Shown: one piece after another, positions 1-51,927 of the stretch | Layout: the number at the start of each line of letters is the position of its first letter | Numbering within the stretch: the first letter of the stretch is position 1 | Source: Patescibacteria group bacterium | GTDB lineage: Bacteria > Patescibacteriota > Microgenomatia > UBA12405 | Length of the DNA stretch: 64,000 bases | Assembly (NCBI GenBank): GCA_013387215.1 | Contig: WARW01000019.1 | Coordinates: 22,717 to 86,716 of the forward strand | Direction of reading: 5' to 3' | Notes under the pieces: model-generated | Told to the model about the DNA's origin: nothing | Databases searched by the model: none | The model's input: only the letters and a program-made list of their open reading frames with translations | Translations under genes and position numbers: made by a program

Positions 1-178
1 GCCAATTATTCTTAAAAACCATGTCTTAGTCAATAATTGGGAAAATGGCTGGCAGCTTAATTCTAATGCCGCAGCTACAATTTATCTCCTTTTCTGGCCT
101 CAGGTTCTCGAATTTATTGGCTTTGGATTTTTGCTTTTAGTCCCTCTGATAATTTCTACTAAAAAACTTGATTTTTAG
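1..178 (+). CDS. 3' end of a hydrophobic (membrane) protein; partial, continues upstream of the window
   Basis: Open frame from window edge to TAG at 176-178 (…NAAATIYLLFWPQVLEFIGFGFLLLVPLIISTKKLDF*). Hydrophobic C-terminus. Confidence 0.35.
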   Translation, partial: PIILKNHVLVNNWENGWQLNSNAAATIYLLFWPQVLEFIGFGFLLLVPLIISTKKLDF

Positions 179-253
179 CCAAAAGATTGGTAAAATACCC
201 CCAATTAAGTAATCAGGCATTTGCCCTCTTTCACTTGATAAATTTCGTTCTTT

Positions 254-268
254 AACAAACGGTCGTAT
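254..268. promoter_or_regulatory. palindromic motif AACAAACGGTCGTAT (AWACG-nn-CGTWT) in the 5' region of secreted-protein gene 1
   Basis: Exact inverted copy at 1156-1170. Variants at 1308-1318, 2093-2112, 2236-2247 and 3187-3204, all flanking the three paralogous secreted-protein genes. Confidence 0.45.
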
Positions 269-314
269 TAAAAAAATGTCCTCAAAAAGAGGAAAGAAAG
301 GTAAGGTGTTTTCC

Positions 315-1097
315 ATGTTAAAAAAAATCGTTTGCCTCGTAATGGTTCTCTTTGTCTGTCTATCAATAACTAGCGTTTCTTTCGGTGCTGAACCACCAAA
401 AACTATTACCGTTACTCTTGTGGACCAAAAAGTAAATTTGAGTTCCAATTGGAGTATCTATTACACCAGAGTGCTTTGGAAAAGAGCTAATGGCACAGAA
501 TACAGTCAGTTGGTCAGCTTTTCATTAAAAAGTTCCACTTTCTCTATTCCCGCAGACGCTTGGGCTGTCAAAATAGACCATGCTTCCAATGTTACAATTT
601 TTACCGAACTTCCGGCTATCTATAATAGCTGTTGGATTATTGTCAAAAATAAACCAGCCGAAGTTTGGACCAATCTCAGCCATAGTTCCACTCACACTCC
701 TGGTTTAGGACATCAGATTTACCAAGTATCTACTTGGGGCAATCATCGTTGGATTTGTTCTTATGAAACCGACACTAATTGCACAATTTGTCATCCTAAA
801 CCTTCAAACGCTATCGATGCTGGTAAAAACTTTGAAACCGGTGTTAACAACACAAAATATATCTATTTCAAAGTTGATACCAACGAGCTGGGCATAATTG
901 GGGCTTTTTCTCTTGATGGCATCTCTGATGGTGTTTACAAGGTTTATACCCCCGGTATATACACTGCTAACATTAACAATGGTTTTCTAGTTATTGTTTC
1001 CAAAGACAAGGCTCAAGCCGAGTGGGATGCACGTCTCAAAACAGCCAAAGATAATGGTTGGGCTTGTGCTCACATTGACAAAGGACCTTTGAAGTAA
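315..1097 (+). CDS. secreted hypothetical protein (signal peptide)
   Basis: ORF 276..1097. Likely start at the internal ATG 315, preceded by a purine-rich RBS (aagaggaaagaaaggtaagg). N-terminus MLKKIVCLVMVLFVCLSITSVSFGA looks like a signal peptide. No recognisable domain. Confidence 0.6.
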   Translation: MLKKIVCLVMVLFVCLSITSVSFGAEPPKTITVTLVDQKVNLSSNWSIYYTRVLWKRANGTEYSQLVSFSLKSSTFSIPADAWAVKIDHASNVTIFTELPAIYNSCWIIVKNKPAEVWTNLSHSSTHTPGLGHQIYQVSTWGNHRWICSYETDTNCTICHPKPSNAIDAGKNFETGVNNTKYIYFKVDTNELGIIGAFSLDGISDGVYKVYTPGIYTANINNGFLVIVSKDKAQAEWDARLKTAKDNGWACAHIDKGPLK

Positions 1098-1345
1098 TTT
1101 TTTGGGGATTCTCTTTTTTCGCAAGATTAATGGGAATCTCCTTCCTGCTTTTAATATACGACCGTTTGTTGCAATTTTTCCTATTTTTTATTGAGTATTT
1201 TTGTGTCTAAAAACTTGACATTTAACCTATAATATAGTAATATATGTTACAGTTTACAAAGAAACCTTTGTTTCGCACAAAACCGCTTCTTGTAATCCTG
1301 GTACCTTAACAAACGGCCACACTTAAACCCAAAAGGAGATTTCAA

Positions 1346-2029
1346 ATGAACCGCAGTGTTGCTTTAAGCATTCGTATCCTTTTCACCCTCAGCTTCATTT
1401 TGGCTCTGACTTTTTCGTCCTGTTTCACGGCCAAAGCTGATTCCGGCAACACCCTGACCATTAGTGGAGATTCTAACCTCATTCAGTTCCAAACCAACTG
1501 GGATGTGGCTTCTCTGCCTATGTTTTGGGGCGTTTCAGGATTACCCATGCAGCCAGACACTATCACCTTCGTCAACCGCCAAGCTCAATTAATTCCGCCC
1601 AAAAACACCGTTTCCATGTTTTTCAATCAGCCCGGAGTCACTGTTTCCACCACCTTCACCGCTTTAACCAGTGATGGATGGTATGCAGTTCCCCAGGCTA
1701 CTGACGAGATTGTTGTTTCTGGTTCCATTGCTTTGGTTCAATTCATATCCAACTTTGATCCAGCACCACTCAGTGTTACTTGGGGCGTTTCAGGACTTCC
1801 GGCTGTAACTCAAACGGTTACTTTCACCAATCGCGTTGCCAGCCTGATTCCCCCTAAAAACACTGTGTCTATGCTGTTTGCCCCCTCAGGCATCAAAGTT
1901 ACCACAAGTTTTCCTAATCTTGGCTTTGGCTGGTATCAGGTTCCCGCAGTTACCCCAACTCCGACTCCCAGCCCGACGCCGAATCCTATTCAAAACAATT
2001 TCATTTATCTCCCTCTCGTTACTCGCTAA
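1346..2029 (+). CDS. secreted protein with two internal ~85-aa tandem repeats, Pro/Thr linker and C-terminal FIYLPLV tail
   Basis: RBS aaaggag lies 8 nt upstream. Signal-peptide-like N-terminus. Internal duplication (…WGVSGLP…T(I/V)TF(V/T)NR.A.LIPPKNTVSM(F/L)F…) occurs twice. TPTPTPSPTPNP linker. Paralogous to 2280..2936. Confidence 0.65.
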   Translation: MNRSVALSIRILFTLSFILALTFSSCFTAKADSGNTLTISGDSNLIQFQTNWDVASLPMFWGVSGLPMQPDTITFVNRQAQLIPPKNTVSMFFNQPGVTVSTTFTALTSDGWYAVPQATDEIVVSGSIALVQFISNFDPAPLSVTWGVSGLPAVTQTVTFTNRVASLIPPKNTVSMLFAPSGIKVTTSFPNLGFGWYQVPAVTPTPTPSPTPNPIQNNFIYLPLVTR

Positions 2030-2043
2030 TTCAAATCCCGCTT

Positions 2044-2081
2044 GGGCTGCTTCCCGACTCTCGTAATCGAGGAAGCAGCCC
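2044..2081. other. GC-rich hairpin (gggctgcttcc…ggaagcagccc) downstream of 1346..2029
   Basis: 11-bp inverted repeat in an AT-rich context with no clear U-tract. A related hairpin starting gggctgc recurs at 3139-3177. Confidence 0.4.
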
Positions 2082-2279
2082 GGGTTTGGGATAAAAGTGT
2101 GGTCGTTTGTATAAATTTTCCCTATTTCCCCCAGATTTTTTCTTGACTTCTACCTATTTTTATTGTAATATAAAATACAATTATAGGCACATTCTTAAAT
2201 TGCCAAGAATTCTGCATATAATCAGTTCTTTAAAAAAACGACCGTATCTCAACCCCAAAATCAAAGAAGGAGTCTAAAA

Positions 2280-2936
2280 ATGTATCACCGTTCAACCGCT
2301 TTACTTGCCTTTATCACCATTGTTCTGTTGAGCACTTTATTGTTCTATCAGTCAAGTGCACACGCAGAATCCGCAAACAACACCATCACCATAAGTGGAG
2401 ACAATTACCTAATCCTTTTCTCATCTGATTTCACTTCCAGCCAAGCATTTTCTGTTCATTGGAGTCCTGATAACCATAACTGGTCAACTCAAGACATCAT
2501 ATTCAATAAAAACAATGTATATATTGAGCCACCAGATGGTACTATCAGCATGAAAATTGACTCAGCCAATACTCTGATTAGTACTAGTTTTAACCCGCAA
2601 GAAAACGGCAGTTATTCTATTCCTCAAATATTCCCCCGTCTTATTCAAATGACTGGAAACAATAAACAATTAACAATGATTATTAGTAATGTTGGCCCAA
2701 TACCTATCCCCATCAGATGGAGACTCCAAAACAACATCGAAATCGAAGATACCCTGAATTTTTATGATAATACTCTTCTTGTGACTCCACCAGTAGGTGC
2801 CGTTGCTATCGGAATGAATCTAAAAGGATACAACTTTTACACCCAATTCGAACTAACTCCCGGTGGATGGTTCCAAATCACTCAGGTTGAAACTGGACCT
2901 CAGCAACAAATCTTTTTACCCTTAATTCAGGGTTAA
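2280..2936 (+). CDS. secreted protein, paralog of 1346..2029 (C-terminal IFLPLI tail)
   Basis: RBS gaaggag. Signal peptide MYHRSTALLAFITIVLLSTLLFYQSSAHA. The N-terminal 'NNTITISGDNYLILF' resembles 'GNTLTISGDSNLIQF' of the neighbour. Shares the C-terminal ΦΦLPLΦ motif. Confidence 0.65.
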   Translation: MYHRSTALLAFITIVLLSTLLFYQSSAHAESANNTITISGDNYLILFSSDFTSSQAFSVHWSPDNHNWSTQDIIFNKNNVYIEPPDGTISMKIDSANTLISTSFNPQENGSYSIPQIFPRLIQMTGNNKQLTMIISNVGPIPIPIRWRLQNNIEIEDTLNFYDNTLLVTPPVGAVAIGMNLKGYNFYTQFELTPGGWFQITQVETGPQQQIFLPLIQG

Positions 2937-3138
2937 AGCTAATGATTTATTACTACATCACTCTCATCACCAGCATCCTTTTGATAATTGGTCTGTGCGC
3001 CTTTTTTGTATTTCAGATTTGCCGTTTAAAGCGTCGTCCCACCAAGCACCAATCTTTATGGAATTATATTGGACCAATTCCTCTCGGAAGACGCAAATCG
3101 CACAGCGCTCATCGGTAATCACATTTTTCAACACCAAA

Positions 3139-3177
3139 GGGCTGCCCTCAAAACACACTCGTGTCCGAGGGCAGTCC
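3139..3177. terminator. GC-rich hairpin between convergent genes (2280..2936 + and glyA -)
   Basis: gggctgccctc…gagggcagtcc inverted repeat with a nested acacactcgtgt palindrome in the loop. Only a weak T/A tract on either side. Confidence 0.45.
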
Positions 3178-3201
3178 AGAAAGGGAAAAAGTGCGGTCGT
3201 T

Positions 3202-4404
3202 TTAAAAATTTTTCAACCACTCTTTAACTTCATTTGCTACTTTTTCTTTATTTTCTCCCTTAATTACCTGACAAATTAATTCTCCTATTTTGACCATATC
3301 CTCTTCTTTCATGCCTCTGGTAGTCATTGCTGGTGTTCCAATTCTGATACCAGATGGTCTCAAAGGTGAACCTTCTTCATGAGGAATAGTATTGGCATTA
3401 ACGATTATGTTGGCTGCCTCTAAATCTAAAGCCACTTGCTTGCCCATTTCTCTGCCCACATCCACCACCATTAAATGGTTTTCGGTCCCAAACACTCTAA
3501 ACCCATTTTTCTTTAAAGTTTCGGCCAAAGCTTTAGCATTTTTTAGCACTTGAACTGCATATTCTTTGAATTCAGGCGTACTAGCCTCGGCAAAAGCTAT
3601 CCCCATTGCTGCAATTGCATTCTCATGCGGACCGCCTTGCAGGCCTGGGAAAACTGCTTTATCGATTTTTTTAGCCAGTTCCAGATCCTTTTCCAAACCT
3701 TTTTTAGTTACGCCGATAAAAGCCCCTCTTGGACCTCTCAAACTCTTGTGGGTAGTGCTGGTTATCACATGTGCATATTCAACTGGGCTCATATGCACTC
3801 CGCCCACAACCAAACCCACAATATGGGAAATATCTGCAACTAACCAAGCACCCACACTATCGGCAATTTCTCCAAATCGTTTAAAATCCAAAACATATGG
3901 ATAAGCCGTGGTGCCGGCAAAAATCATCTTAGGTTTAGTTTCTTTAACTAAGTTTTCCAACTTGTCATAATCAATCCTTCCATCCGGCTCAACATCATAT
4001 TGGATACTTTCAAAAAACTTTCCGGAAAAAGTAATCTTTGGATGTCCATGAGTCAAATGTCCGCCAGCTGAAAGTTTCAAACCGCAGATTTTATCGTCTC
4101 TCTCCAACAAAGCCATTTGCACTGCACTATTGGCAGGACTTCCGGAATAAGGCTGGACATTTAAATGTTCCACTCCTAAAAGTTCCTTGCCTCTGGCAAT
4201 TGTTAAATTTTCAATTTCATCAATAATGGCATTGCCCTGATAATATCTTCTGCCAGGATAACCTTCAGCATATTTGTTGGTCAGCCCGCTCCCGATTGCT
4301 GCCATCACATCCTCTGATGCAAAATTCTCGCTTGGAATCAGCTGAATCTGTTCTTTTTGTCTTTTTTCTTCCGCTTTAATAAGCTCCAACATTTTATCTT
4401 TCAT
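3202..4404 (-). CDS. glyA: serine hydroxymethyltransferase
   Basis: Full-length SHMT similarity (…YSGSPANSAVQMALL…, HLTHGHP…, PLP-lysine region TTHKSLRGPRG). Confidence 0.95.
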   Translation of the reverse strand: MKDKMLELIKAEEKRQKEQIQLIPSENFASEDVMAAIGSGLTNKYAEGYPGRRYYQGNAIIDEIENLTIARGKELLGVEHLNVQPYSGSPANSAVQMALLERDDKICGLKLSAGGHLTHGHPKITFSGKFFESIQYDVEPDGRIDYDKLENLVKETKPKMIFAGTTAYPYVLDFKRFGEIADSVGAWLVADISHIVGLVVGGVHMSPVEYAHVITSTTHKSLRGPRGAFIGVTKKGLEKDLELAKKIDKAVFPGLQGGPHENAIAAMGIAFAEASTPEFKEYAVQVLKNAKALAETLKKNGFRVFGTENHLMVVDVGREMGKQVALDLEAANIIVNANTIPHEEGSPLRPSGIRIGTPAMTTRGMKEEDMVKIGELICQVIKGENKEKVANEVKEWLKNF

Positions 4405-12086: not shown

Positions 12087-12169
12087 ATTACTTTTGCGCG
12101 AAAGTTTTGGTTATCCGGCTATACGGTTGCGGCACAGCCCAGGACTTACACCTGGTTCCCCACTAATTT

Positions 12170-12652
12170 TTATATCGTTCGGCTAATTATAAACAAATAA
12201 TCTGACAAACGGTTGAAGTATTTTAAAACATCTTCATCGATTTTTTTAGAATTATTCAAACTCACAACTCTTCGTTCAGTTCTACGAGCTATCGTCCGAC
12301 CTAAATGTAAAAAGGCTTCAATTTCATTTTTACCTGGCACCACGAATTCTTTTAGTTCAGGTAATTCCTTTTCCATTCTCATAATTTCAGCCTCAAAAAA
12401 GTCCACTCTTTTATTAATTTCTTCAAATTTTTTTCCACACGCCAACTCACCATTAATTCTCATCAAATCTTTTTGTATTTCTTCAATTTGAATCTTAAAT
12501 TCTGGAATCTGGAATTTTATTTTTACAATTCCCAACACCGCCTGCAATTCATCAATCGTTCCCACTGTTTCCACTAACACATGGTCTTTGGTAACTATTT
12601 GATAGTTGCAAGTTGTTTTTCCTTTATCGCCTGTCTTTGTTGTTATCGACAT
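12170..12652 (-). CDS. ATP:cob(I)alamin adenosyltransferase, PduO/MMAB type
   Basis: N-terminal TKTGDKGKTT…VETVGTIDELQAVLG matches the PduO-type ATR signature. Adjacent to the B12-dependent class II RNR. Confidence 0.8.
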   Translation of the reverse strand: MSITTKTGDKGKTTCNYQIVTKDHVLVETVGTIDELQAVLGIVKIKFQIPEFKIQIEEIQKDLMRINGELACGKKFEEINKRVDFFEAEIMRMEKELPELKEFVVPGKNEIEAFLHLGRTIARRTERRVVSLNNSKKIDEDVLKYFNRLSDYLFIISRTI

Positions 12653-29876: not shown

Positions 29877-30082
29877 GACTATATTTATATCCTATAACTT
29901 GATTATTTTATATATATTTGGTATAATTCCCTGTTTTTTAAACATCCCAAAAAATAATTGCATTTTTGGGTTTATGTACCTTAAAAATCAATAAGCTAAA
30001 TCGAGCAAGTGCTCTATTTGGACATAAATTTTATGCCTAAATCGAGCATTTGCTCAAAATTTTAGTTAGGAGAGTGTATTTT

Positions 30083-31060
30083 ATGAACGATTACTTATTT
30101 GTATCTGACATTCACGGTGAGGATCTTAATTTAGCTGAAAAACTTTTCAAGATTGCCGAGGGCAGCGAACTACCCAAAATAGTCTTTTTCCTTGGTGATG
30201 TGGTTGGAACTAAGCTTCTAGATCAGCTGCAAAAGCTTTTCTATAACCGCGTTTACAATCATATGAAAGCTTTATTGAAAAATAATCCCAATCCAAGCGA
30301 CCGGGAAATTATCGATTATCCTATTGGCGATGGAAAAACAATTGCTGATGGCTGCAAAGAACTCAGCGATTTTCTCCAAAATATCGACCCTGAATACAGG
30401 CCTGTCGGTATAGCTACATATGCCAGGGAATTGGTCTCTTATGTTCATTATGGACATTTTTGCTCCAATTTGACAAAAACGATCAAGGAATTCATTAAAA
30501 AAGATATGAAAGAAAATGCCCAAGTTTGGCTGGAAGTCATGAACGCATTCATTGAAAAAGGCGTACTTGTTGTTGTTATTGAAGGAAACTGGGATGCTCG
30601 CACCCCGCTTGACTTTATGCCCAGCAAAAAAGAATGCCTGCCCCTCCCAATTAAAAACAGATCTTTTTATTTTAAAGAACTATTAAGGTCCTACAATAAT
30701 CAGATCTTATACTTTGATGCAGTTGGTACTATTGAAACCGAAAACGAAATCTTCGTTCTCTGGCCATTTGATAGTGCAATTAACGCTACCCAAATTCCTG
30801 AATTTGATGACAATGAAACCAGAAAAATAGTTTTGGTCTCACACGCTCAAATCGATTGGGAAGCAATCAAAGGTAAAACAGCCATGACTGCCGAAGGTGA
30901 AACTATCCAATTTAATATGGGCATGACGTTCATTGATTTAAAGGCTGATACTGCCGTCCATGGACATTTGCATGACGATATTAACATTGATAATTACTCT
31001 TATCATGAAAAGAATATTCATTATTTGCCCCTTCGCACCTACCGTTTTATTAATTTTTAG
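30083..31060 (+). CDS. calcineurin-like metallophosphoesterase family protein (cassette gene c)
   Basis: Start at MNDYLFVSDIHGED after the taggagag RBS. Motifs D-x-H-G (VSDIHG) and GD-x-x-x (FFLGDVVG) are typical of MPP-superfamily phosphoesterases. Confidence 0.6.
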   Translation: MNDYLFVSDIHGEDLNLAEKLFKIAEGSELPKIVFFLGDVVGTKLLDQLQKLFYNRVYNHMKALLKNNPNPSDREIIDYPIGDGKTIADGCKELSDFLQNIDPEYRPVGIATYARELVSYVHYGHFCSNLTKTIKEFIKKDMKENAQVWLEVMNAFIEKGVLVVVIEGNWDARTPLDFMPSKKECLPLPIKNRSFYFKELLRSYNNQILYFDAVGTIETENEIFVLWPFDSAINATQIPEFDDNETRKIVLVSHAQIDWEAIKGKTAMTAEGETIQFNMGMTFIDLKADTAVHGHLHDDINIDNYSYHEKNIHYLPLRTYRFINF

Positions 31061-31075
31061 CTTATCTGATCCGAT

Positions 31076-31128
31076 AGCCCTGATGTTTCACAAGATTTAT
31101 CTTGTATCAACCTCAGGGCTTTTTTTTC
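31076..31128 (+). terminator. rho-independent terminator with nested palindrome (cassette c)
   Basis: agccctga…[acaagat…atcttgt]…tcagggct followed by T8. Confidence 0.75.
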
Positions 31129-31263
31129 TTAAAATTCTATCCTATAACTTGATTTTAATATCTATACTTAGTATAATCCCCTGTTTTCCAAAAACTTAAA
31201 ACATCAGCGTTTTTTGTTTTGCACATTTAAAATCCTTAAACTAACTAGAAAGGAGGCGTTAAT

Positions 31264-32424: not shown

Positions 32425-32440
32425 AAAATTATGGTTTCTT

Positions 32441-32498
32441 GACCTCAGTTAGTTTATTTGCAAAATGCAAATTAACGCTAATCTGAGGTCTTTTTTTT
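32441..32498 (+). terminator. rho-independent terminator with nested palindrome (cassette e)
   Basis: gacctcag…[tttgcaaaatgcaaa]…ctgaggtc followed by T8. Confidence 0.75.
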
Positions 32499-32654
32499 GA
32501 TTTAAAGCTAAACAGTTATACACATCATTTACGCATTGACTTTTCGGAAATACTCCATTAGAATTCTTAGTTTGGAACAGACAACCGCGTCTCGAATCCA
32601 ATTGTTCTTTAAAAACGTAAAACACATCTGTAATTGATCAAAGGAGGTCAAACC

Positions 32655-33129: not shown

Positions 33130-33277
33130 ATATGAATGTTATAATCCTCTATTCACCGAAGACAGTAGGTTTTCTGAGCAATCAGAATCGAAGCATCCTA
33201 CCGAGGCAATCAACAAAGTTATTTGTATTTGATTATCTCCTCGCACTCGGCGAGGATTTTTTTTATTAAAAAACATT
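33130..33277 (+). promoter_or_regulatory. rplJ promoter and structured L10 leader with attenuator-like hairpin
   Basis: gttataatcctc -10 element. About 130-nt leader ending in ctcctcgcactcggcgaggattttttttt (GC stem + U-tract) immediately before the rplJ ATG. This resembles the known L10(L12)4 autoregulatory leader arrangement. Confidence 0.5.
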
Positions 33278-47095: not shown

Positions 47096-47998
47096 TTAGC
47101 ACTTCTCTTGATTACTTGTCAACACTTTCAACGTAAAGATAGGCAAAACAAGCTGTCGTTTAAATCTTTTTGGTTCTTTGATTAATGAATACAGCCATTC
47201 CATCCCTGCTTTTCGCCATATTTCAGGCGCTCTTTTAAGATCTCCGCTGTAATAATCAAAGCTTCTCCCCACTCCCATAACGATACCGATATTCAATTTA
47301 GCTAAATTATTTTCTATCCATTCCTCCTGCTTTTTCATTCCATAAGCCACAAATAAAAAATCTGGTTTCATCTTATTTATTTCTTCAATTATTTTAGAAT
47401 TTTCGAATTTAGGTTCGCCTTCAGAATACCCCGTTTTTAACTTCTTATTTTTAGTACTGTATTTTTCTTGAAAAAACTGGGCCGTTCTTTCGGCTCTATC
47501 ATTCCATCCTCCTAAAAAATATACTGATCCGTTTCTTTCAAAAGCCATCTTGCAAAATTCATCTACAAGATCACTTCCTGAAGCTAATTCATTTTTGAAC
47601 TCGCCGCCTAAAATCTTCAATCCAGTTGTTAATCCTACCGACAATCTTCTTAAAATTCCTCTTTCTTTAATCACTCTTCTTGCCCAAACCAAACCAATTC
47701 CATCGACCACATTTAGGTCGGTTTTCTTCAAAATCTTTAAAAAATTCTCATCAATTGTGGTCTTAACCACAAATTCTGGGTTCACGGTAGCAATCCATTT
47801 GTCTTTTTGTTTATTATCTAACCAATTCTCCACTATCCTTAGCACTCCCGCTCTGTCTCTGCCACATAACGGCGTTTCCCAAATTTCCCAGTTGTTTTCA
47901 TTCATTTCTTCTCTTTTCACTATCTTCATTTTAGCAAAAAAATGCAATTTAGCGCTTATCAAAAAATTTAGGTTCAAAAAAAACTTCTTTATGCTCAA
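47096..47998 (-). CDS. WecB/TagA/CpsF-family glycosyltransferase (start may be at internal MKIVKRE)
   Basis: …NPEFVV…DGIGLVWA…SVYFLGGWN…DFLFVAYGMKKQEEWI…IGIVMGVGRSFDYYSGDLKRAPEIW…EWLYSLIKEPKRFKR matches PF03808-type proteins. Confidence 0.75.
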   Translation of the reverse strand: MSIKKFFLNLNFLISAKLHFFAKMKIVKREEMNENNWEIWETPLCGRDRAGVLRIVENWLDNKQKDKWIATVNPEFVVKTTIDENFLKILKKTDLNVVDGIGLVWARRVIKERGILRRLSVGLTTGLKILGGEFKNELASGSDLVDEFCKMAFERNGSVYFLGGWNDRAERTAQFFQEKYSTKNKKLKTGYSEGEPKFENSKIIEEINKMKPDFLFVAYGMKKQEEWIENNLAKLNIGIVMGVGRSFDYYSGDLKRAPEIWRKAGMEWLYSLIKEPKRFKRQLVLPIFTLKVLTSNQEKC

Positions 47999-51693: not shown

Positions 51694-51770
51694 CGGGGAT
51701 TGGCGCAATTGGCTAGCGCGCAGCGTTCGGGACGCTGAGGCTGCTGGTTCGAATCCAGTATCCCCGACCA
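51694..51770 (+). tRNA. tRNA-Pro (anticodon CGG), CCA encoded
   Basis: Manually folded cloverleaf: acceptor CGGGGAT/ATCCCCG (C1:G72, typical of bacterial tRNA-Pro). Anticodon loop uuCGGga. T-loop TTCGAAT. Confidence 0.85.
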
Positions 51771-51855
51771 CATAAAAACTGGTATATTTATTCCATAAAT
51801 AAGACCGTAAAACAGGATAAATCGCACCAGAGGCTCTAGAACGCACAGAATGTTT

Positions 51856-51927
51856 GTCCTTATAGTTCAATGGATAGAACGGCTGCCTCCTAAGCGGCAA
51901 ATCCAGGTCCGATTCCTGGTAGGGACA
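51856..51927 (+). tRNA. tRNA-Arg (anticodon CCU), no encoded CCA
   Basis: Manually folded cloverleaf: acceptor GTCCTTA/TAGGGAC. Anticodon stem gctgc/gcggc with loop cuCCUaa. T-arm ccagg-tccgatt-cctgg. Confidence 0.85.

Follow-up and report, generated by a model that had tools for sequence, protein, structure and literature searches.

Near the start of a 64,000-nucleotide (nt) stretch of contig WARW01000019.1 from a Patescibacteria group bacterium (assembly GCA_013387215.1; hereafter the window), three open reading frames (ORFs) lie on the same (+) strand at 315..1097 (g1), 1346..2029 (g2) and 2280..2936 (g3). Each predicted protein begins with a hydrophobic, signal-peptide-like segment. The initial annotation had described three secreted-protein genes with their own promoters, and a sigma-70-type consensus, TTGAYW-17-TAAWAT, is indeed present upstream of each. 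The subject of this report is a pair of short sequences, here called arms, that flanks each ORF. One arm is located in the predicted 5' untranslated region (UTR), and its reverse complement follows the stop codon and a strong hairpin.

Three gene units and their cognate arms

The three genes were originally described as paralogs. This description fits g2 and g3, which share 26% identity (E=5e-17), but the count was overstated because g1 is not demonstrably paralogous: its similarity to g2 is marginal and confined to the N-terminus (E=0.018), and homology cannot be demonstrated. An internal duplication reported for g2 is real, with 52% identity over 82 aa (E=6e-27). The elements of the three units, together with the gene that converges on the array, are as follows.

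168..196 (+): g1 promoter-like site TTGATT-17-TAAAAT (motif match)
204..239 (+): g1 5'-proximal leader hairpin, minimum free energy (MFE) -7.3 kcal/mol
254..268 (+): g1 5' arm AACAAACGGTCGTAT; reaches 275 with a 2-nt bulge
315..1097 (+): g1 coding sequence (CDS); secreted protein of 260 aa that contains Cys, without a YLP tail and without a Pfam family
1104..1141 (+): g1 3' hairpin; the 88-nt 3' region, including a small second hairpin at 1146-1173, folds at -18.7 kcal/mol
1156..1170 (+): g1 3' arm ATACGACCGTTTGTT; exact reverse complement of 254-268, with a U-rich stretch behind it
1215..1243 (+): g2 promoter-like site TTGACA-17-TAATAT (motif match)
1250..1300 (+): g2 leader hairpin (single-sequence fold)
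1309..1324 (+): g2 5' arm ACAAACGGCCACACTT; pairs with 2095-2110
1346..2029 (+): g2 CDS; signal peptide, two Ig/FN3-like beta-sandwich repeats, PT linker and YLP-box tail
2035..2092 (+): g2 extended 3' GC hairpin, -38.1 kcal/mol, z -4.6, without a U-tract behind it
2095..2110 (+): g2 3' arm AAGTGTGGTCGTTTGT; unpaired in the local fold
2143..2171 (+): g3 promoter-like site TTGACT-17-TAATAT (motif match)
2180..2222 (+): g3 leader hairpin (single-sequence fold)
2235..2247 (+): g3 5' arm AAAACGACCGTAT; pairs with 3191-3203
2280..2936 (+): g3 CDS; paralog of g2 with the tail IFLPLIQG
2942..3118 (+): putative coding ORF of 58 aa with a single predicted transmembrane segment and no above-threshold family match; within the g3 loop, downstream of g3 and upstream of the g3 3' hairpin and arm
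3139..3177 (+): g3 3' GC hairpin (extended form 3120-3193), -30.8 kcal/mol, z -4.3
3191..3203 (+): g3 3' arm GTGCGGTCGTTTT; abuts or overlaps the stop codon of glyA
3202..4404 (convergent with the g1-g3 array): glyA, stop codon at 3202-3204; the best named GlyA relatives are from Candidatus Shapirobacteria metagenome-assembled genomes, which places the window in a genome of the candidate phyla radiation (Patescibacteria/Microgenomates)

Six copies of a palindromic motif, AWACG-NN-CGTWT, had been proposed to surround these genes. All six are present, with coordinates corrected to 1309-1324, 2095-2110, 2235-2247 and 3191-3203 for the copies around g2 and g3. However, the strict palindrome (AWACGNNCGTWT) fits only three of the six (three found versus 0.14 expected). 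Because the g2 copies break the palindrome, the six are better described as three cognate complementary pairs. The arms of g1 form an exact helix of 15 bp (duplex energy -22.4 kcal/mol), those of g2 a helix of 16 bp with one G·U pair (-24.5 kcal/mol), and those of g3 a helix of 13 bp with two U·G pairs (-17.4 kcal/mol).

Duplex folding of the long flanks gave uninterpretable giant interior loops, and pairing was instead quantified with an ungapped helix score between the 5' and 3' flanks of the same gene. With their own 3' arms, the 5' arms of g1, g2 and g3 score 18.0, 18.75 and 14.0, compared with 13.2 and 12.0, 12.2 and 9.2, and 10.0 and 11.8, respectively, for the non-cognate 3' arms. The best partner of every 5' arm within the window is therefore the 3' arm of its own gene. 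For the 63 other genes in the window, the same score has a mean of 8.9 (sd 1.3) and a maximum of 12.5. The 15-mer AACAAACGGTCGTAT occurs nowhere else in the 64 kb, and its sole further match with up to three mismatches, at 47147, is chance-like. The copies thus exceed chance expectation, and the view that each gene carries its own copy of a duplicated cis-acting module, as opposed to scattered chance matches, is supported.

Related loci and covariation of the arms

The g2 family is rare, with five proteins recovered from 5.8 billion sequences and 17 representatives (E<=1e-3) from a set of 1.84 billion. Contigs encoding three g2 homologs, together with look-ups based on GlyA synteny, yielded five metagenome loci with both gene and arms, which were combined with g1, g2 and g3 into a set of eight units.

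L001: g2 homolog; arms AACAAACGACCGTAT / ATACGGTCGTTTGTT
L242 (the same locus as L243): g2 homolog; 14-bp arms
L002: GC content 52%; arms ACGACCGTAC / GTACGGTCGT, the 3' arm being cut by the contig end
L245 (the same locus as L246 and L247): three-repeat homolog on a 1.1-Mb contig; arms CAAACGACCGCAC / GTGCGGTCGTTTG
L251: protein without BLASTP similarity to g1; arms CAACCGACCGCAAT / ATTGCGGTCGGTTG

Outside the window, the module flanks relatives that share 53-57% identity with g2, the three-repeat homolog of L245 and the L251 protein. In L244 and L248, only the 3' hairpin and arm are present, at contig ends, and in the syntenic loci L249, L252 and L253 the gene and the module are both absent. 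Scans of the genome and the metagenome contigs with a g2-family protein pattern found no relatives. Searching with a DNA pattern of the 3' module (GGGCTGCC..GGCAGYCC..CGGTCGT) retrieved only random GC-rich genomes among the matches listed, and loci L003-L241 are regarded as noise.

Two of these loci have additional features. In L002 (1-1013) the coding sequence is GC-rich (52% for the locus versus 36-38% in the others), whereas the promoter, leader, arms and 3' hairpin are AT-rich and nearly identical to those of the low-GC relatives. In L248 (3140-3330, reverse strand) the conserved promoter is present once more in full (TTGACA...TAATAT-atattaca), directly behind the 3' arm of a YLP-tailed gene. 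This copy is accompanied by a leader-like hairpin and a GC hairpin, and it has neither an ORF nor arms ahead of the convergent glyA gene. It is either a decayed unit or a small RNA of ~140 nt.

In the alignment of all eight units, the -35 and -10 columns show no variation, and the promoters are located 58-70 nt upstream of the 5' arm. A 37-nt block at the g2 promoter is nearly identical in L001, L242 and L002. Structurally, every unit shares the same leader topology, a hairpin of 40-50 nt that begins a few nucleotides from the predicted transcription start site (TSS) and stops just ahead of a conserved GGTWCCTT and the 5' arm. The z-scores of these hairpins range from -1.3 to -4.4 in single-sequence folds, and RNAalifold predicted no structure from a MAFFT alignment of the leaders. 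A motif resembling GGTWCYTTWAMAA, found ahead of the 5' arms, has 13 matches in the window with at most one mismatch (3.8 expected), including 1300-1312, 29975-29987 and 32603-32615, and it occurs in other 5' leaders as well.

A strong hairpin separates the stop codon from the 3' arm in every unit, and the isolated 3' regions fold with energies of -19 to -46 kcal/mol and z-scores down to -5.6. The GC hairpins reported after g2 and g3, each followed by AAAAGTGYGGTCGTTT, are among them. In most of the seven local folds examined, the 3' arm is wholly or largely single-stranded. Weak local pairing is seen in g1, L001 and L251, and in the isolated local fold of g1 the arm is partly paired within the small second hairpin. 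The sequence behind the 3' hairpins is GGGUUUGGGAUAAAAG or AGAAAGGGAAAAAG and contains no U-tract, a configuration unlike that of an intrinsic terminator. Rather, the U-rich stretch follows the 3' arm. A terminator scan of the + strand of 1-3600 found no terminator-like site, and an Rfam scan of 1-3300 gave no match even at E<=1. Classical terminators consisting of a hairpin and a U-tract are present elsewhere in the window, at ~31075-31130 and 32440-32500.

To assess covariation, the arms of the eight units were aligned in a fixed antiparallel register and a helix of 17 pairs was counted. Standard pairs occupy 87.8% of the cells, compared with 34-45% after the 3' partner is shifted by 1-3 columns. 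Two-sided changes occur in 7 of 17 pairs versus 2.8±1.3 in shuffles (2 of 500 shuffles reach 7), and the covariation score is 0.279 versus 0.131±0.031 (none of 500 reaches the observed value). Across the eight units, the 13 core pairs include a single unpaired cell. The changes form a clear series from U:A (L001, L242) through U·G (g3) to C:G (g2, L002, L245), and L251 carries an A:U to C:G change at a position where the other units are invariant. Compensated segments include CCGTAT/ATACGG, which becomes CCGCAC/GTGCGG in L245 and CCACAC/GTGTGG in g2, and AACCG/CGGTT in L251. In the g2 arms (CCACACTT / AAGTGTGG) the palindrome is lost while complementarity is kept, and the arms change together within the pair. 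Three cells of the core are imperfect pairs, all of them G·U when read on the sense strand and none A·C. Because these wobbles are G·U on the coding strand only, they weakly favour selection on the sense RNA over selection on DNA or on an antisense transcript.

Folding is consistent with this pairing. Arm duplex energies across the units range from -17.4 to -25.7 kcal/mol. In MFE folds of whole predicted transcripts (876-1038 nt), the helix is complete or nearly complete in all five units folded, with 15/15 pairs in g1, 15/16 in g2, 13/13 in g3, 15/15 in L001 and 14/14 in L242. Mean pair probabilities, computed for g1 and g2 only, are 0.96 and 0.93.

The same data bear on the notion that the repeats are functionless remnants of tandem duplication combined with chance similarity. 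Whole units have evidently been duplicated, and some likeness between the flanks of different units is to be expected. Such a history would explain similarity between units, but not reverse-complementarity within a unit. In addition, the helices have been retained across genera through compensatory changes, despite the 26% identity of the g2 and g3 proteins, a level of divergence at which neutral non-coding DNA should be saturated. Given the 63-gene background and the covariation, this explanation is barely credible.

A second possibility is that the arms are DNA sites for a dedicated transcription factor, one in the leader and the other downstream of the gene, with looping of the DNA as a possibility. 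The core ACG-NN-CGT is partly dyad-symmetric, strict palindromes are overrepresented as given above, and several positions are invariant in all units. A second palindrome, GTAATATATATTAC, also overlaps the -10/TSS region in L001, L242 and L002. However, the arm palindrome is lost in g2 (AAACGGCCACAC), L245 and L251, where double changes maintain complementarity to the partner. A shared factor predicts identical sites within one genome, whereas the sites here are pair-specific, differing between genes and changing together within pairs. Moreover, the downstream site lies 0.8-1.1 kb away, always inverted and directly behind the 3' hairpin, an arrangement with no obvious operator logic. We therefore do not favour the dedicated-repressor operator that was originally suggested, and consider DNA sites of this type unlikely.

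The promoter-proximal palindrome, 14 nt long (GTAATATATATTAC; g2 form GTAATATATGTTAC), overlaps the -10 hexamer and predicted TSS of g2-type promoters, at 1238-1256 of the window, ~305-320 of L001 and ~78-92 of L002. It may serve as an operator or be no more than the promoter and its initiation region.

The genomic context of the units is informative with regard to DNA rearrangement. In L001, L242/L243 and L245-L247, the unit is located between a gene for a membrane protein of ~931-962 aa, itself preceded by a GT2 gene, and a convergent glyA. L251 is a partial exception to this synteny in that several small genes intervene. Independent assemblies are available for two loci, three of one and two of the other, and these are identical with a single orientation.

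Inverted repeats on both sides of each CDS could in principle mediate site-specific DNA inversion that flips the gene relative to its promoter, or the next promoter, and thus phase variation. For inversion or cassette shuffling, common recombinase sites and both orientations would be expected. Within the array, the g2 and g3 promoters likewise lie between non-cognate arms, which form helices of 11-12 bp including G·U pairs. A promoter-flanking inverton formed by the 3' arm of one gene and the 5' arm of the next was considered and set aside, since its helices are shorter and the arrangement is impossible in single-gene loci. Specifically, the promoters of L001, L242, L245 and L251 are not preceded by an arm, and the cognate helices that flank the CDS are longer than those that flank promoters. 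All eight units are in the ON orientation, and the five independent assemblies of two loci show one orientation at the assembly level. The precomputed Pfam hits for the called neighbours in L242/L243 and L245-L247 include no recombinase family; several of these neighbours have no hit. Furthermore, the arms differ between units of one genome, and their mismatches are of the G·U type on the sense strand only. With a single orientation in all assemblies and a fixed position beside glyA, the proposed recombination, cassette shuffling or phase variation is not favoured, and inversion is very unlikely.

Alternatively, the arms might be the terminal inverted repeats of a small mobile cassette, similar to a miniature inverted-repeat transposable element or an integron cassette, that carries a secreted-protein gene. 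Consistent with this, unrelated proteins (g1, the g2 family and the L251 protein) are found between similar arms, and the units are tandemly multiplied in the window. However, the position between the membrane-protein gene (~935 aa) and glyA is fixed wherever the context is known, with L251 again a partial exception, and the 64 kb contain no extra copies. The precomputed Pfam hits of the neighbours include no transposase or integrase family, and inspection by eye found no target-site duplication around the g1 arms. The promoter lies outside the arms and is nevertheless conserved together with them. A mobile cassette is thus a most improbable explanation.

Secreted products and other features of the window

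The C-terminal tails of g2 (...FIYLPLVTR) and g3 (...IFLPLIQG) are the only ones of their kind in the 64-kb window. Both had been noted as unusual and both are present. The suggestion that they serve as a sorting or processing tag is plausible, since the g2 tail NNFIYLPLVTR reaches the cut-off of the NCBIfam model NF053834, the 'YLP-box putative sorting motif' (15.1 bits, cut-off 10, E 0.017). The same tail scores 12.6 bits against a second YLP-box model, NF050076, below its cut-off of 15 (E 0.1). These models span 10-11 residues at the extreme C-terminus. They matched neither g1 nor g3 nor any of nine homologs and neighbours; for g3 and the other homologs this is to be expected of models only 10 residues long. 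Other homologs end in YLPLIIH, YLPNIRR, FLPLILR or YLPYIIR, and the L251 protein ends in FLPFVIVTSSR.

In distant homologs (P0129, P0130, P0132, P0133, P0135 and P0140) a YLP-type motif is also found internally, between beta-sandwich repeats, for example as vFLPLV, iYLPML or iFLPFI. The internal occurrence of ΦFLPΦΦ in these sequences suggests that the motif may be a linker or a processing site rather than a C-terminal tag alone. No partner enzyme emerged from the analysis. An AlphaFold2 model of g2 (mean pLDDT 80.9) shows a signal helix and two beta-sandwich domains, with a disordered PT linker and tail, and Foldseek returned nothing more specific than generic matches to FN3/Ig-like tandem domains. 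No Pfam family covers g2. Apart from the YLP-box match, scans of the proteins and UTRs against Pfam, NCBIfam and Rfam found nothing, and a literature search on 'YLP-box' returned nothing.

Several other features of the window were observed. A 336-aa ORF at 30050-31060 (+) ends in ...NIHYLPLRTYRFINF, with a YLPL motif 11 residues before the C-terminus, and has no flanking arms. A promoter block of ~55 nt (tatcctataacttgatt...tataat.ccctgtttt) is repeated at 29880-29935 and 31130-31185, ahead of the genes at 30050 and 31264. Whatever the gene orientation, every 2-kb bin of 1-64000 has a strongly negative GC skew (-0.07 to -0.36). At the gathering threshold, Rfam identified only the following elements in the whole window.

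12099-12177 (-), 33138-33272 (+), 51694-51927 (+): AdoCbl-II riboswitch, ribosomal protein L10 leader, two tRNAs

A candidate helix joining the ends of the mRNA

The complementarity of the arms, their cognate specificity, their compensated conservation and the thermodynamic plausibility of their pairing are established computationally. Both arms presumably reside within one transcript. We consider it likely, though well short of certain, that a selected RNA helix exists on the sense strand and pairs the 5' UTR with the 3' UTR across each ORF. In this model, each unit would be transcribed from its own sigma-70-type promoter, and the two untranslated ends of the mRNA would base-pair. The 5' arm of 13-16 nt would be located behind the leader hairpin and ahead of the Shine-Dalgarno (SD) sequence, and its 3' partner right behind the very stable GC hairpin and right ahead of the U-rich stretch. 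The helix would enclose the entire reading frame (790-1120 nt) and leave the ribosome-binding site and CDS free. Because these regions are outside the helix, it could persist during translation, and translating ribosomes would not need to melt it.

The helix probably clamps both mRNA ends and controls access by RNases. It would work in the manner of the hbs element discussed below. Such a clamp might restrict RNases that depend on the 5' end as well as 3' exonucleases, or it might set a defined processing site. The outcome would be a fixed stability or level of the mRNAs that encode these abundant secreted Ig-like proteins, several with YLP-type tails.

Several observations weigh against a selected end helix. 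The argument from G·U pairs involves three cells, and because only eight units are available and these are related to each other, the shuffle statistics are inflated. An inverted repeat acting as DNA would show equal complementarity. The TSS and the 3' end are predictions, and termination at the GC hairpin would leave the 3' arm outside the mRNA. Finally, several helix positions are invariant in sequence (A-A-n-C-G...C...A) beyond the needs of pairing, which suggests that a protein reads this sequence, either as double-stranded RNA (dsRNA) or as DNA. This invariance hints at a possible RNase III-type processing signal, with recognition as DNA being less likely.

A related explanation, which we regard as rather unlikely, is that the helix is either a sequence-specific dsRNA signal through which each unit is matured or a split long-range terminator, and in either case part of a surface-protein cassette specific to the candidate phyla radiation (CPR). 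In the first version, a dedicated factor would excise or mature each unit to yield a defined, end-paired and very stable mRNA; the partial dyad symmetry of the invariant core A-A-n-C-G-R-Y-C would fit recognition by an enzyme that binds dsRNA as a dimer, for example RNase III. In the second, the helix would act jointly with the U-rich stretch. If true, the module would be an expression cassette specific to the CPR and dedicated to cell-surface proteins, YLP-box proteins among them.

The proposed clamp has its closest characterised counterpart in the hbs mRNA of Bacillus subtilis, in which a ~14-nt, fully complementary pairing between the 5' UTR and 3' UTR (-19 kcal/mol), proved by compensatory mutations, is located just downstream of 5' UTR hairpins, spans the ORF, leaves the SD uncovered, restricts RNase Y cleavage and modulates stability (Braun, Durand & Condon 2017, PMC5737220). 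The helices described here are comparable in length (13-16 bp), energy (-17 to -26 kcal/mol) and 5' placement. However, there is no sequence relationship, and the 3' arm follows a strong hairpin, whereas that of hbs is located just before the terminator. The present case is also supported by phylogenetic covariation instead of experiment, and it involves three adjacent genes with pair-specific arms in a CPR bacterium.

In the hok mRNA of type I toxin-antitoxin systems, a helix between the 5' UTR and 3' UTR (tac/fbi) closes and stabilises the full-length mRNA, a stable 3' hairpin precedes the removable 3' pairing element, and translation of the closed form is silenced by SD sequestration until 3' trimming activates it (PMC9841398). 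The long-distance end helix and the stable hairpin upstream of the 3' pairing element are shared with the units described here. In contrast to hok, the SD is in no arm, the genes encode secreted beta-sandwich proteins instead of a toxin, and there is no sign of an antisense RNA.

The UTRs of a single mRNA also base-pair in Staphylococcus aureus icaR (PMC3868564). To this extent, the pairing proposed here is similar. There, the 3' UTR reportedly binds the SD region and favours cleavage by RNase III. In our units, however, the 5' arm ends ~8-135 nt upstream of an AGGAG-like SD, depending on the unit, and the arms contain no anti-SD sequence, which speaks against SD sequestration. In the RNase III processing stems that bracket 16S and 23S rRNA, a long functional RNA is likewise enclosed by a helix formed from the complementary sequences at its two sides. 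These stems exceed 20 bp, whereas the helix predicted here is shorter and surrounds a protein-coding ORF.

To our knowledge, only a handful of gene-spanning bacterial helices between the 5' UTR and 3' UTR have been dissected (hok, icaR and hbs), and we know of no other that is supported by covariation. The predicted module is a covariation-supported addition, from a CPR lineage, to this small class of long-range interactions. Its support comes from natural compensatory changes across several uncultured Shapirobacteria-like genomes, and the three adjacent, pair-specific copies in one genome provide a built-in control for specificity. We are aware of almost nothing that is known about mRNA stability in CPR bacteria, and the module would offer a testable handle on their post-transcriptional control. 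It also singles out a small and rare family of Ig-like secreted proteins, whose YLP-box tail is uncharacterised, as components of the cell surface that are probably expressed highly or tightly.

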